A stretch of 64,000 nucleotides of DNA from Myxococcota bacterium (GTDB lineage Bacteria > Myxococcota_A > UBA796 > CAJQPC01): NCBI GenBank assembly GCA_036012755.1, contig DASCPX010000027.1:288001-352000 (forward strand). The letters are read 5' to 3'. Both the position numbers and the translations under genes were made by a program. Positions 57,468 to 64,000 of the stretch are shown one piece after another. The notes beneath the pieces were generated by a model. It made no database searches, had not been told where the DNA came from, and worked only from the letters and a program-made list of their open reading frames with translations. The stretch's first letter is position 1. Each line of letters starts with the position of its first letter.

Positions 57468-57667
57468 GTGAGCCAGCGAGATGCGGGCCAGCGTGCCCTC
57501 CATGCCATCCGCCCTCGAGCCCAGGCTGAGCTCCCCGCCGAGGGCGTCCACGATCGAGCGGGACACCGCGAGACCCAGCCCAGTCCCCTGCCCTGTGTCC
57601 AGGGTGGTGAAGAAGGGCTCGAAGACCCGGTCACGGATCCCCGGGGGAATGCCGGGGCCGTCGGCCA
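57468..57667 (-). pseudogene. Fragment of histidine kinase HATPase domain
   Basis: [26 protein letters not shown]; no H box, N box or start. Confidence 0.85.
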
Positions 57668-57671
57668 GGGA

Positions 57672-58238
57672 GAGCTCACCTGCGAGACCGACCCCTGCGG
57701 CGCTGACGCGGTCTGCAACGACCTCGACGCTGGCGACTACGAGTGCACCTGCGCGACGGGCTTCTCCGGAGACGGCTTCGACTGCTGCGCTGACGACGAC
57801 GGCGACGAGACCTGCAACGACCTCGACAACTGCGTCTCCGATGCCAACCCCTCCCAGGACGACTTCAACTCCGACGGGACCGGCGACGCCTGCGACTCGA
57901 TCGTGATCATGCTGTCCGACCTCACCACCACCGCGCAGTTCTACGAGTACGAGGCGGTGTCCGCCACGGTCCACTACTTCGCGCTCCTCGACGAAGGCGG
58001 CGAGCCACACGTCGCAGTCGACGCTTGCGATGTCTGCTACGGAGCCAAGAAAGGCTACCGGCAGGACGGCGACGAGATGGTCTGCAACAACTGCGGCCTC
58101 ACATTCGACATCGACGGCATCGGCTCCGAGAACCGGACCGGTGGCTGCAACCCCGGCTACATCCCGATCGAGATCACCGCCGAGTCCGTCATCATCGAGC
58201 CAGAGGCCCTCGAGGCCGCGAGCTGGTACTTCGAGTAG
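57672..58238 (+). CDS. DUF2318/FtrD-like Fe-S protein with EGF-like and TSP3-like repeats, 5' truncated
   Basis: [13 protein letters not shown] (EGF-like), DNC....[14 protein letters not shown] (TSP3-like), [25 protein letters not shown]; no credible start. Confidence 0.7.
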
Positions 58239-58841: not shown

Positions 58842-60932
58842 TCAGTAGCTCTCGCTCGCGCTGCCCCCGTCGCGGTCTCCGAAGTCCCACCCGTAGCGCT
58901 CCGCCACTGCCGCCCCGTAGTCCCTGCGGACCACCGTCGCGGTGACGGTCAGCCCCGCGGTAGAGGGGAAGCGGTGCTCGCTCGTGGCGCTGGAGAAGGC
59001 GGCGATGCGGTTGTCGCTGGCGACGTCGAGGGCCCTGTAGTGGGCCACGCCCCGGCGGCCCTCGCTGTCGACGAGGACCTTTGCGTAGAGCCAACCCGGC
59101 GCGCCGGCGTGGTGCCCCTCGGCGCAGAGGAAGACGACATCGCCGCGACGTGTCTCCGGGGGCTGCGAGGCGAGGATTGCCGAGTCCCCGGTGATGGAGC
59201 TCAGCTCGACCTCGCCGAGGAACTCGTAGACAGGCAGGCCCTTTTCTGCGGCCGTGGCCTCGGCGAACGAGGTCGTGCCAGGCCCTGAGTAGTCGGTCCA
59301 CTCCCCGGTCGGGCGGACGAAGCGGGCGATCAGCGCCCCCTCCAGCTCCTGGCCCGAGAGCTCCAGGTCCAGCTCCGAGACAGACGCGTCAGCGCCGATG
59401 GTCCCCATCGCCAGGTAGCCGCCGACGTCCGGAACGACCTGGCCACCTGTGGCTTCTACCGGCTGTCCGTCAGCGTCCAGGGCGCTCACGAGGACGATGA
59501 TCTGCCTCAGCGGCTCCCCGGTCGGCACTGCGTGTGCGGCCCGATTCGTCAGCTCGACCGTCGCGCGGAGCTCGCCATCCTGCTCTTCGAGGGAGAGCAG
59601 GAGGTAGGGATCGCCGAGGTCATCGGCGCGGGGGAAGTGATGGTGCCGGACCTCTCCCGCCTCGCGCAGCCAGCCCTGGGTGGTCGAGGGGATCTGGCCC
59701 CGGTCGACGATGTCGTAGGTCGAGCTCGGGAGCTCCAGCGTCGGCATGTGGCAGCCCTGACAGGAGAAGCCGGCCTCTGTGGAGCCCGCCGCTTCGAACT
59801 CGGAGAAGGTCTCCAACACGGGCAGCCCATCGGGCCAGCGTTCGGAGTCCAGCTCCTCGCCGGGTCCCAGCGCCGGCTGGTAGTACTCGTGGCAGGCGGA
59901 GCAGAAGCGCGCCTCGCGGAACAGGGGGTTGTAGCTCCCGTTCATGATCGGCACGACCACGTCGGGGTAGGGGCCGAAGATGATTGGGTCGAACTCCTGG
60001 CCGCCGATGCGCGACTCCTCGCTGGGGCGCTCGAGCTGGATCGCCCCGTCGAGTCCAGGGGCGGGACCGGCGACGACGGAGCGGATCTTGTGGCAGAAGT
60101 CGCAGGTGACCCCCTCGTGAGCCACTCCGGTCGAGGCGGCGAAGTCGATCGACCCGGGCGTGCCGCCGTCGGTGGCGGGGGTGTGGCAGTCGCCGCAGCT
60201 GCCGAAAGCGGTGAGGGTGTCCCGTCGATCCGGGTGGTCGCAGGCCGGTCCACAGCCCTCGTTCAGCCAAGGAAGCACGCCCTCGCCGAGGTAGCAGTAC
60301 TCCGCGACGGTCCCCTCCTCTCCTGGCAGCTGGCCCTCTGCCAGGCTCCCGCCAAGGGCGTCGCAGTCGTCTGTCTCGGAGGCCCGCCCGGTGTAGATGT
60401 CCCACACCTGTGGGTCCGAGGCGGCCTTGGCGTGGGTGGAGTCCGCCCAGTCCCCGGCGATGTCCCAGTGGCAGTGTCCGCAGTAGCTCGTGTCGGGGCT
60501 CTTGATGTCCCCACCCTTCTGGAAGGGGTAGTCGACGTTGTCGACTCCCAGCAACGGCCGCATCGTGATGGTCAGCGGGCCTGTGGGATCCTCCTCGGGC
60601 ACGGCCACGGACCCGCTGATCCAGCCCTCCTTGCCGGCCAGCAGGTGACGCTCGGTGATGCCGTCGTCGTCTACCTCCAGGGTAGCCAGACCCTCTGCAT
60701 CGGTGGTCACCCAGCGGTCCTCGGGCCAGCCCCCGACCATGGCCACGGCTCCCTCCACGACAGCGCCGTCGGGGTCCACGACCACCACCGTCGCGGCGCC
60801 GGTCCAGCGCTGCGCCTCGATCTCGCTGTCGTCGACGGAGCTCTCGGCCCGGCTCTCGGTCGAGCTCTCGTCAGGCGCGCTGTCAGCTCCCCGGCCGTTG
60901 CAGGCGAGGCAGAACAAAAGCGGCGTGATCAA
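58842..60932 (-). CDS. Multiheme c-type cytochrome lipoprotein (5 CxxCH)
   Basis: CGHCH, CGDCH, CDFCH, CSACH, CQGCH; CLAC lipobox; TTG start overlapping upstream TGA. Confidence 0.85.
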   Translation of the reverse strand: MITPLLFCLACNGRGADSAPDESSTESRAESSVDDSEIEAQRWTGAATVVVVDPDGAVVEGAVAMVGGWPEDRWVTTDAEGLATLEVDDDGITERHLLAGKEGWISGSVAVPEEDPTGPLTITMRPLLGVDNVDYPFQKGGDIKSPDTSYCGHCHWDIAGDWADSTHAKAASDPQVWDIYTGRASETDDCDALGGSLAEGQLPGEEGTVAEYCYLGEGVLPWLNEGCGPACDHPDRRDTLTAFGSCGDCHTPATDGGTPGSIDFAASTGVAHEGVTCDFCHKIRSVVAGPAPGLDGAIQLERPSEESRIGGQEFDPIIFGPYPDVVVPIMNGSYNPLFREARFCSACHEYYQPALGPGEELDSERWPDGLPVLETFSEFEAAGSTEAGFSCQGCHMPTLELPSSTYDIVDRGQIPSTTQGWLREAGEVRHHHFPRADDLGDPYLLLSLEEQDGELRATVELTNRAAHAVPTGEPLRQIIVLVSALDADGQPVEATGGQVVPDVGGYLAMGTIGADASVSELDLELSGQELEGALIARFVRPTGEWTDYSGPGTTSFAEATAAEKGLPVYEFLGEVELSSITGDSAILASQPPETRRGDVVFLCAEGHHAGAPGWLYAKVLVDSEGRRGVAHYRALDVASDNRIAAFSSATSEHRFPSTAGLTVTATVVRRDYGAAVAERYGWDFGDRDGGSASESY

Positions 60933-61648
60933 GAGCCCGCGTGTTCGGCGATCACGTCCCTGAGCTCCTCGAGCCCGTGGCCGGTCGTGCACTCCAGCAT
61001 CTCCATCTCCGGCGACAGGGCGCACTTGCCGGGCAGGCTCCTGCCATCGTAGGGCGTGACGTCCAGCAGCAGGCCCTCGGTGTCCGCCAGGACCGGGAGG
61101 TCCGGCGAGCCGAGCCGCTCGTGGTACTCGGCGGCCATCTCGGGTGGGGGCGGACCGGGATCCATGCCCTCGAAGAGGCCGACGATGTAGCCCATCTCGA
61201 TGCCGGTCTCGTCGGTGAAGTCGACGCTGTCTTCATAGAGGCTGACCGCCTCCGTCATGCAGACGCCTCACCAGGCGGCGGTCATGAAGAGGATGTGGTA
61301 GCTCCTGGCGAAGTCCCAGAGGTCCACCTCGTCGCCGCACTGGTCGACGAAGGTGACGTTGTCGACCACGTCACCGACCTCGGCTCCGGTGGAGCTCAGG
61401 TCACCGGGATCGTCGTGGCGCCAGCCGCAGGCGTAGCACTGCTCGTCGAGGTCCAGCGGGCTGGAGCCGCAGTCGAGCTCGTCGCCGTCGTCGAAGCCGT
61501 CGCCGTCGCTGTCCGCCAGGGTCGGATCCGTGCCGAACTCGTCCTCTTCCATGCAGTCTTCGAGCCCGTCGCCGTCAGCGTCACCGCCGCAGGCTCGGGC
61601 GACGTCAGTGCCGGTACAAGCGAGGCCAAGCAGGAGCAGGGAGTTCAT
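60929..61648 (-). CDS. Selenocysteine-containing redoxin (UxxC) lipoprotein with Ca-binding DxDxDG repeats, 239 aa
   Basis: Track ORFs 61268-61648 and 60929-61258 are in frame; TGA 61270-61268 gives TAAW-U-GVC; SECIS-like hairpin follows. Confidence 0.82.
61229..61267 (-). promoter_or_regulatory. Bacterial SECIS-like hairpin
   Basis: GTCT-GCATGAC-GGAGGC[GGTCA]GCCTCT-ATG-A-AGAC; G-led loop starting 21 nt after the UGA. Confidence 0.7.
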
Positions 61649-61719
61649 GGGCAGTTCCTATCGGACGGCCCAGCCTATCCTCCGAGAGGGTGCCTTCGGT
61701 CCGCGGTCTGCAAACAGCC

Positions 61720-62589
61720 TCAGTCGGAGGGGTCCAGAGCGGCCTCGATGCCCCCTGGGGTGTGGCACGCCTGGCACAGGGCGCCGTCCTCCAGAGGCAG
61801 CCTGGACAGCGCCGAGTCCCCCGCGACCGGAGCCGCGTGGAGGCCGATCGACGGCGACCCCTGCTCCAGGCTCGGAGCCAGGACCTGCTCCAACCAGGAC
61901 TCGGGGAAGGGGGACGAGTCGGGGATCTCACGGCTTCGCTGGGTGATCCCGGGGGGATGGGGGTCATGGCAGGTCGAGCAGACCAGCTCGCCCTGGGGAG
62001 TCAGCGGCAGGCCCGCTGCCTTGGCCCGCTCCGCCATCTCCGGCTCCATCGGCCCACGGTGGAGCGCGGATCCCGCGTGGGCCGAGAGCTGGTGGCAGGC
62101 CACGCAGATCTCGTCGCCCTGGACCGTCGCTGGGGCGCGGCCCGTGTCGGCAGGGACCGGGTCGTGGCAGCCCAGGCAGCGGGTCGGGATCGCCGGGTCC
62201 AGCATCGCCTGGTGGGGGTCGAAGCCCACGCTGGTCAGCTCCACGTGGCAGGCGGCGCAGAAGCCGCGCTCGTTGGGATAGGTCCCCCTGAGCAGGCCGG
62301 GGCTGGCCGCGTCGCCGTGACAGGCGGGCTCGTCGTGGCAGCTCAGGCAGGCCAGCTCGCCATTCACCAGCGGAAAGACCCCTGGGACGGTCGCCGTCTC
62401 CGGCTTCATCCCGACGGGGTGGGGATCGGCGGCGTGGCAGCTCAGGCAGGTCTCGTCCGCGGAGCCGTGGGTGAAGGAGACCTCCTCCGGGGCGGTCCCG
62501 ACCGATGCCTCGGAGTGGCAGGCGGCGCAGCCCTCCGCGTCGCCATGGGGGTTGGCAGAGGCGCTCAGCAGCAGCAGGAGCCCGGTCAC
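61720..62589 (-). CDS. Octaheme c-type cytochrome (doubled-CXXCH type)
   Basis: 8 CxxCH motifs, HPVG and CH-DPH patterns; GTG start overlapping upstream TGA. Confidence 0.88.
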   Translation of the reverse strand: MTGLLLLLSASANPHGDAEGCAACHSEASVGTAPEEVSFTHGSADETCLSCHAADPHPVGMKPETATVPGVFPLVNGELACLSCHDEPACHGDAASPGLLRGTYPNERGFCAACHVELTSVGFDPHQAMLDPAIPTRCLGCHDPVPADTGRAPATVQGDEICVACHQLSAHAGSALHRGPMEPEMAERAKAAGLPLTPQGELVCSTCHDPHPPGITQRSREIPDSSPFPESWLEQVLAPSLEQGSPSIGLHAAPVAGDSALSRLPLEDGALCQACHTPGGIEAALDPSD

Positions 62590-62879
62590 TCGCCCTCTCC
62601 CGTGTCGACTCGGAGCGCCTCGACGCCGTTGTCTCCATGACATGGCACGCAGGTGGACGGGTCCTCTGGATCCGCCTCGATCTCTTCGACCTCGACCCCG
62701 CCGATGCAGTCCTGGCTGTGGATGTTCCAGGCCTGGTGACACTGGAAGCACTGCTCCTGGCCCCAGCCCACGCCGTGTTCCTCGGCGGTCAGGGTGAGCG
62801 CCGCCGGAGACCTGGTCAGGTCCCGCGTCCCGGCGCAGGGATCCGGATCGCCGCAGGCGAGCAACAACAGCAGGCTCAC
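62586..62879 (-). CDS. Small diheme cytochrome c lipoprotein
   Basis: MSLLLLLAC; CFQCH, CVPCH. Confidence 0.82.
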   Translation of the reverse strand: MSLLLLLACGDPDPCAGTRDLTRSPAALTLTAEEHGVGWGQEQCFQCHQAWNIHSQDCIGGVEVEEIEADPEDPSTCVPCHGDNGVEALRVDTGEGE

Positions 62880-63460
62880 AGGGCACCTCCATCTGCGTGG
62901 CAGGCGACACAGTCGGGCTGGAGGTGGCAGGTGCTGCAGGCGGCCGGATCAGCACGGGCCGCGATCCCGTGGATGCTGATCCAGCTGCGGTCGTGCACGT
63001 CGAAGGAGATGGACTCCTTGTTCTCGTGGCAGTCGATGCACTCGGAGCTCAAGTGGCAGTCCTTGCACTGCAGGAGCCCCATGCGGCTCTGTCCCCCGTG
63101 GAGCTCCAGCCACCCGGCCCCGTGGCTCGCTGGTGGGGCGATCTGCTCGTGGCAGGTCTCGCAGCGCCCCGGGGCCTTGGTCCGCCGGTCGTCCGCCGGG
63201 TTGTGGCAGTAGTGACAGGCCTGCTCGGGCGGTCGGAGGAAGACCTCGTCCACCGCCTGGGGCGAGGCCGGTGTGGGCGCCGCCGCCCCCACCTGGTGAC
63301 ACGCAGTGCAGGAGAGACCCTCGCGCTTCAGGGCGCGCTCGTGGACCTCGTGGTCGAAGCGATCGAAGATCTGCTCTGAGTGCCCGGACAAGCTCGGGGC
63401 CGCGGCCCAGGCCAAGGGAGGGGCCAGGAGCAGGACCATCGCCGAGCTGCGCCACCTCAT
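62876..63460 (-). CDS. Heptaheme periplasmic cytochrome c (c3/c7-like N-terminal part)
   Basis: Signal peptide (AWA), FDHEVH, 7 CxxCH. Confidence 0.88.
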   Translation of the reverse strand: MRWRSSAMVLLLAPPLAWAAAPSLSGHSEQIFDRFDHEVHERALKREGLSCTACHQVGAAAPTPASPQAVDEVFLRPPEQACHYCHNPADDRRTKAPGRCETCHEQIAPPASHGAGWLELHGGQSRMGLLQCKDCHLSSECIDCHENKESISFDVHDRSWISIHGIAARADPAACSTCHLQPDCVACHADGGAL

Positions 63461-64000
63461 GGCAGGCTCACGACGAGGCCGGCGTTGCCTCGCAGATCGA
63501 AGCGATGGGTGGCGTCAGAGGCCGCCTCGACCCCGGCCTGGACGCGAAGCCGTTCCGTGAGCTCTGAGTGGACCTCGAGGCCCCCGGTCAGGACCGTGTC
63601 CCAGGGCTCGTGCAGCTTGCGATAGGGCACGACCGCCGCCGTGGCGTGCAGGCTCCGCGCGTCCGACAGGGACAGGGTCGCCCGCGCGCTCAGGGCGTGG
63701 AAGACACCGCCGGGCCCAGACCGGAAGGCGTAGGCAGGGGCGACGGTCCAGAGCCGAGCCCGTCCCGGCAGCCAGGCAACGTCGACGAGGTGGCCCCACT
63801 GACGCACCTCGTCCTCGGAGTGGGATGTGAGGGCGTAGCTGGTCCACAGGGTCGAGCGCCGAGCGCCTCGAAGACGCACGCTCCCACCGACCTGGTCGAC
63901 CCCCTCCGGCGCAAAGGCGGCAGTGATGGCCTCGCCGAAGAGGGAGTCCGGGTCGAGCGCCTCTCTGTGCTGGGCGTGGATCGAGGCCCGCACTCCAGGG
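63457..64000 (-). CDS. Probable outer-membrane beta-barrel, C-terminal part (runs off window)
   Basis: Continuous alternating amphipathic strands; ATGA overlap with heptaheme gene. Confidence 0.6.
   Translation of the reverse strand, partial: PGVRASIHAQHREALDPDSLFGEAITAAFAPEGVDQVGGSVRLRGARRSTLWTSYALTSHSEDEVRQWGHLVDVAWLPGRARLWTVAPAYAFRSGPGGVFHALSARATLSLSDARSLHATAAVVPYRKLHEPWDTVLTGGLEVHSELTERLRVQAGVEAASDATHRFDLRGNAGLVVSLP

Follow-up and report, generated by a model that had tools for sequence, protein, structure and literature searches.

Porin–cytochrome clusters, in which an outer-membrane barrel is encoded together with multiheme cytochromes, are a known and variable kind of gene cluster. 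In the ExtABCD and OmbB-OmaB-OmcB conduits of Geobacter, the barrel gene is flanked by genes for periplasmic multihemes and small lipoprotein cytochromes, the accessory cytochromes vary, and in some genomes cytochrome b-type inner-membrane proteins are encoded nearby (PMC6148476; PMC4245776). A locus sharing these traits was identified at the end of a 64,000-nucleotide stretch of DNA (the window; G000:C27:288001-352000) from a bacterium of UBA796, a class placed in Myxococcota_A (10.64898/2026.07.10.737566). It consists of two modules lying side by side, each separately conserved: (i) a new variant of the porin–cytochrome operon (genes A–F), likely an electron conduit, and (ii) a gene pair encoding a redoxin (G), strongly supported as a selenoprotein, and a pentaheme cytochrome (H). 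The features are listed below (aa, amino acids; SECIS, selenocysteine insertion sequence); coordinates refer to the window, or to the extended locus where preceded by L009.

L009:8330-10273, minus strand: A, lipoprotein-like octaheme cytochrome, 647 aa, beyond the window
L009:7584-8333: B, lipoprotein-like decaheme cytochrome, 249 aa, wholly beyond the window
63457 to beyond 64000, minus strand: C, barrel, continuing 587 bases beyond the window end (L009:6457-7587)
62876-63460, minus strand: D, 7-heme cytochrome, 194 aa
62586-62879, minus strand: E, 2-heme lipoprotein-like cytochrome, 97 aa
61720-62589, minus strand: F, 8-heme paired-CXXCH cytochrome, 289 aa
60929-61648, minus strand: G, redoxin, 239 aa
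61237..61253, minus strand: SECIS-like hairpin, 18-34 nt from the UGA at 61270-61268
58842-60932, minus strand: H, 5-heme (pentaheme) lipoprotein-like cytochrome, 696 aa
58242..58838, plus strand: I, CxxC thioredoxin-fold lipoprotein, convergent

An earlier note on the window had described six co-oriented genes with 22 heme motifs and four 4-bp overlaps, and all of these were re-found, the genes lying on the minus strand in the same positions. Random occurrence of the CxxCH motifs in the six frames was far lower (mean 0.22, maximum 3, in 200 base shuffles). The overlaps occupy four of the five in-window junctions, including G/H, and the sole gap (71 bp) separates F from G. The heme set given at that time, 7/2/8/5, consists of real genes but is incomplete: the operon starts outside the window with the 8-heme gene A, followed by B, both attached by 4-bp overlaps. 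The complete order is A8-B10-C-D7-E2-F8, gap, G-H5 (8/10/barrel/7/2/8 plus redoxin/5), with 40 heme motifs over eight genes, 35 of them in A–F.

Comparison with described systems

The Geobacter conduits contain one periplasmic and one or two lipoprotein cytochromes, whereas the heme set found here is 8/10/7/2/8, the host belongs to class UBA796 of the Myxococcota, and the barrel matches no named family; it has no library match to OmbB or ExtB, although the libraries may not hold such models. MtrCAB and MtoAB likewise combine a barrel with multihemes, true OmcA/MtrC-family genes occur in the clusters of relatives, and D weakly matches chain A of 6R2Q, which we take to be MtrA. The MtrB barrel, however, has 26 strands and is larger than C (376 aa, 22 predicted strands), which gave no match, MtrB/PioB-family or other, in Pfam, NCBIfam or the PDB sequences. 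No product of the locus exceeds the DmsE/MtrA decaheme cut-off (best score, 38.6 bits against 192.2), and MtrC was not found in the genome, in agreement with the initial view that the architecture is not that of MtrAB.

The second module resembles MccSep/ExtKL (PDB 9WT8; within extHIJKL), a polysulfide reductase, in combining a pentaheme bearing an Ig-like domain and a conserved HxxPxGxP loop with a selenocysteine (Sec) in the locus and a porin nearby (PMC13510729). MccSep has a Sec residue in this loop and a Cys ligand for heme 2, whereas H has Glu in the loop and no such Cys; here Sec is located on a separate redoxin. H is also bigger than MccSep, is lipoprotein-like and carries four additional Cys. 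A c552-like pentaheme encoded beside a porin and other multihemes is also seen in PtdABCDEFG, PCC4 and T. tepidum c552 (5ZE8) (10.1101/2023.11.21.568154; PMC5566968). In contrast to Ptd/PCC4, the pentaheme described here is no fixed part of the barrel operon, and the gene content of L009 includes none of their tetraheme, FAD oxidoreductase, Fe-S protein and ferric-reductase-like (b-type) membrane protein.

Like the bacterial UxxC/UGC TlpA- and AhpC-like selenoproteins (PMC13188914), redoxin G has a thioredoxin fold in which Sec occupies the first of the redox positions, and Cys orthologues exist, but it differs in being lipoprotein-like and in having TSP3-type repeats and extra conserved Cys. 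It exceeds the cut-off of no curated model, its scores with the TlpA and ResA models being far below, and a separate CcmG is encoded in the ccm operon. Pentaheme synteny of UxxC selenoproteins is not mentioned in the accessible text of PMC13188914.

Neither module was found described in the open full-text literature searched, subscription papers and supplements lying outside it. Myxococcota have been noted as rich in unassigned multihemes, and the list of 606 novel multiheme clusters in the same study could include these proteins unnamed (10.1101/2022.03.26.485925). The heme–redoxin pair G-H is apparently undescribed. The barrel family, the heme set and the pentaheme–partner module were not found described in this literature, but the conduit belongs to a known kind.

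The porin–cytochrome operon

Completion of gene C from the upstream contig gave a full-length outer-membrane beta-barrel, as had been supposed from its truncated form. The predicted structure, folded from 15 sequences, is an open, plug-free barrel of 22 antiparallel strands (predicted local distance difference test score, 87), and Foldseek returned barrel-only matches, to ushers and porins at 7-13% identity. No match to C was obtained in Pfam, NCBIfam or the PDB sequences; 15 homologues compared with Pfam/NCBIfam gave nothing except one chance match, and 22 mostly distant representatives gave a single Pfam match, under cut-off. The C profile retrieved 94 representatives among 1.84 billion sequences, ten of which were looked up and proved to be unnamed or hypothetical; the Atlas neighbours are hypothetical proteins. 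C is present in 16 of 61 close genomes (own genome counted) and in 21 of 401 genomes of the phylum, strong matches being confined to its own order and two genomes of the same class. The operon would add to the known conduits a family whose barrel is unclassified and escapes MtrB-type models, from a class of Myxococcota that is uncultured.

The surroundings of C were compared in 20 other loci (15 in relatives, plus five further). D and E follow C in 14 of the 15 relatives' loci; in the remaining one, the contig ends. Upstream of C, A and B are found in nine loci, are partial or cut off in two and absent in four, and F is variable; the five further loci show the same gene set again. Fuller copies of the operon additionally contain an OmcA/MtrC decaheme above cut-off (G031, G046) or an NHL 15-heme gene. 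A 6-heme, weakly NrfH-like gene (E 1e-7, under cut-off) is present in 5 of 21 barrel regions and a cytochrome b561-type domain in three. The fuller copies thus contain the parts list of a quinone-to-surface conduit known from the Mtr and Geobacter clusters (PMC4245776; PMC6148476). Since the copies in relatives are supplemented by genes of the MtrC family or for NrfH-like or b-type cytochromes, A–F, a conserved porin–cytochrome operon of UBA796 Myxococcota, is likely an outer-membrane electron conduit, and the trans-envelope role proposed earlier can be graded as likely on the same grounds; we infer its conduit function, topology and direction.

Among the individual cytochromes, A (8 hemes) is c554-like and contains two CarboxypepD_reg domains. 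B has nine CxxCH motifs and one CX3CH, the latter kept in all 11 sequences compared. D has a signal peptide without an early Cys and 14 invariant His residues; it is likely periplasmic and likely sits inside the barrel. F is also likely to be periplasmic.

Three further cytochrome loci were observed. A cluster encoding an ExtM-like 9-heme and an 8-heme cytochrome c is located in the same genome (L238:6626-19888; G000:C190) and might supply the quinone-side partner; the genome also encodes a QrcA-like pentaheme. Large beta-propeller cytochromes are encoded at L240:11062-17225 (G000:C129), one weakly matching the middle domain of hydrazine synthase alpha. Another genome contains a multiheme island of ~30 kb, in which three matches to the barrel lie among numerous cytochromes carrying up to 16 hemes (L225-L226; G293:C8:50000-81900).

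The redoxin and the pentaheme cytochrome

When the TGA at codon 127 is read as Sec, G is a single 239-aa protein with the motif WUGVC (Sec127, UxxC); it is lipoprotein-like, of TlpA/AhpC type, with TSP3-like acidic repeats. One TGA occupies the motif site in all 23 homologues within H loci (E<1e-25), and Cys orthologues exist. Of 28 distinct TGA-type sequences, 25 retain the complete five-pair stem of the SECIS-like hairpin, located 19-33 nt from the UGA, whereas none of five Cys-type sequences does; the folding energy of the stem by itself is unremarkable (z about -1.2). The genome encodes tRNA-Sec, SelA, SelB and SelD. G is thus strongly supported as a selenoprotein, as the earlier note had proposed.

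Two similar cases were noted in the same genome: a paralogous redoxin with an in-frame TGA likewise interrupting the motif (W*SAC; L244:3666-4610, G000:C9), and a UshA-like multiheme, likely a second selenoprotein, whose frame opens right after PCG-TGA (L247:1598-2962, G000:C135; paralogue at L248).

H has the fold of c552 (5ZE8), which relates it to MccSep and PtdA, with an N-terminal prealbumin-like domain, five CxxCH motifs and an Ig-like C-terminal domain. Four non-heme Cys (C190, C213, C227, C231) are conserved and Met330 is invariant; the score with NF040886 is 29.4 bits against a cut-off of 250. To our knowledge, MccSep is the only member of the c552/PtdA fold with known function, and the partners of H, a widespread pentaheme lipoprotein family, offer a first handle on this fold.

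The family has 533 matches in GTDB, of which the best 80 loci were examined, neighbours being counted within 2.5 kb. G is present in 23 of these loci, a three-domain multicopper oxidase in 36 and an SO2930-like diheme in 11, and nothing was found in 18. Of the 36 oxidases, 22 were inspected: 21 contain all four copper motifs and one is cut by a contig end. Loci with full flanks (n = 48) contain the oxidase in 23 cases, G in 16, another partner in two and none in seven. A FastTree phylogeny of H revealed (i) a 42-row oxidase clade without an adjacent redoxin in the 80-locus set, (ii) a clade of 16 rows, eight of which have both a redoxin and the diheme, and (iii) a redoxin clade of 19-21 rows, which includes the H of the window. 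Since the partner, Sec-redoxin or oxidase, sorts largely by clade, the distribution suggests that the electron acceptor of H is exchangeable. No multicopper oxidase is encoded in the window's own genome.

Several related loci were recorded. In three genomes, an unclassified 10-heme protein of ~870 aa or more is encoded directly beside G-H (L127, L133, L134). The window's own genome contains three more weakly ExtKL-like pentahemes (L241, L242 and L243; G000:C23, C71 and C9), two of them with an HxxPTGxP loop and no Sec, as well as a natural redoxin–multiheme fusion, in which a CxxC redoxin is joined to a c554-like 8-heme cytochrome (P0102; L237:4321-5685, G000:C137). In cultured strains of Enhygromyxa salina, the pentaheme gene is followed by one for a complete, lipoprotein-like multicopper oxidase (L178:10001-13413; L185).

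Proposed mechanism and alternative explanations

The explanation that we favour, at about an even chance, is a porin–cytochrome conduit lying next to a redox pair that works independently of it, in which hemes pass electrons to a partner protein, here G. In the conduit, D would thread barrel C and E would cap it, lipoproteins A and B would be exposed at the cell surface and F would act as a periplasmic relay. The quinone-side partner would be encoded elsewhere in the genome, candidates being the ExtM-like 9-heme or an ACIII/QrcA-like cytochrome. H would provide a low-potential heme chain devoid of MccSep's own Sec/Cys site, and the selenium–sulfur centre of G would likely receive electrons from these hemes. 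The acceptor of H would be encoded by a separate gene: two clades would use the Sec-redoxin, and the third would use an O2-reducing multicopper oxidase. The acceptor role is assigned to G on three grounds: the alternative to G as partner of H is an oxidase, MccSep performs Sec chemistry with a related fold, and the same genome encodes a redoxin–octaheme fusion. Once reduced, G might act in repair or detoxification on disulfides in the periplasm or at the surface, on polysulfide or on peroxides (candidate substrates). Electron exchange between the modules would be possible but not required.

A number of observations weigh against this explanation. The position aligned with the MccSep Sec (U325) is occupied by E in 71 of the 80 H rows and otherwise by H, A, D or S, and Cys is not among the commonest residues in columns 372-374, which correspond to the heme-2 ligand site (MccSep C239). 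Redoxin and oxidase are not strict alternatives, as both flank H in G005 and G008, and the seven full-flank loci mentioned above have no such partner. G homologues also occur in the absence of H; three of these, of Cys type, lie close to genes of the di-heme peroxidase family, two of them immediately beside such a gene and the third at a distance of 3 kb, and one of the di-heme genes exceeds the cut-off for MbnH. With respect to the conduit, the localisations were judged by eye from N-terminal Cys positions. The window's genome (96% complete) has no MtrC-family and NrfH-like genes, so its own copy may be trimmed, and it encodes a heme-copper oxidase, so the organism is no obvious metal respirer.

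The earlier note had viewed the locus as one coupled system. In this alternative, A–F would exchange electrons with H and G; the latter two would take the place of the inner-membrane cytochromes seen in relatives and would connect the thiol pool with the cell exterior. Indeed, G-H takes the slot after F that the inner-membrane genes (15-heme, NrfH-like) occupy in fuller copies, no terminator-like site lies between F and G, and the modules adjoin in three differing arrangements: in tandem in the window, convergent in G002 (same genus), and in the order I-H-A-B-C in G051 (other family), with H directly before A and G about 12 kb upstream. Of the 10 genomes that carry the window's H clade, eight also have the barrel, compared with 8 of 51 others; this is suggestive of co-occurrence above expectation, but kin are not independent and a shared habitat could explain it. 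However, G-H adjoins the barrel operon in only two of the 20 other barrel loci (several of the remaining 18 being on short contigs), barrel-operon genes occur anywhere in the locus in just two of the 80 H loci, and the convergent arrangement in G002 precludes one transcript. The redoxin/5-heme pair thus lies beside the other cytochrome genes in only a few genomes, with no fixed partnership, and is a module of its own; coupling of the two modules is unproven, and a single coupled system seems quite unlikely.

A role of G outside the electron path seems unlikely as well. As a dedicated maturation or isomerase factor for H (CcmG/ResA/DsbC-like), reduced by DsbD, it would sort the ten heme-binding thiols from the four structural Cys. 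The weak matches of G to the TlpA and ResA models, the conserved non-heme Cys of H, the 4-bp overlap of the two genes and the presence of DsbD in the genome are in line with such a function. On the other hand, a CcmG (WCVPC) and a CcmH are encoded in the ccm operon itself, and the same Cys are retained in the 42-row oxidase clade of H, although no G lies adjacent there, which makes the dedicated reductant suggested in the earlier note less likely; G is also found near unrelated di-heme enzymes. Very unlikely, in our view, is a function of the barrel and cytochromes in metal or chalcogen uptake or handling (ExtI-like for selenite, or for copper with the oxidase and MbnH-like neighbours) instead of respiratory electron transfer. 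It would accord with a neighbouring multicopper oxidase (best NCBIfam match, copper-resistance type), an MbnH-family enzyme among the neighbours, a nearby FtrD-like gene, a P-ATPase of heavy-metal type close to G in G002 (judged by eye) and the ExtM-like and several ExtKL-like genes of the genome, but 35 heme motifs around an unplugged barrel with MtrC-family neighbours fit a wire better than a channel.

A bolder explanation, which we consider quite improbable, is that G-H is a split MccSep-like catalyst, in which H keeps the loop and Sec is supplied in trans by the redoxin. Beside the barrel operon, it would wire a periplasmic thiol/selenol pool directly to the cell exterior, and the pentaheme hub would swap its sink, Sec-redoxin or multicopper oxidase, across Myxococcota, including the cultured E. 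salina.

Neighbouring genes

Gene I, located convergently next to H, is a recurrent neighbour of G or H in relatives and is a possible accessory part. It is directly preceded by a gene encoding EGF-like repeats and a C-terminal FtrD-like domain (window 57468-58238, plus strand). Just upstream of the latter, a sensor kinase gene and a sigma-54 regulator gene are represented by fragments and appear to be broken.

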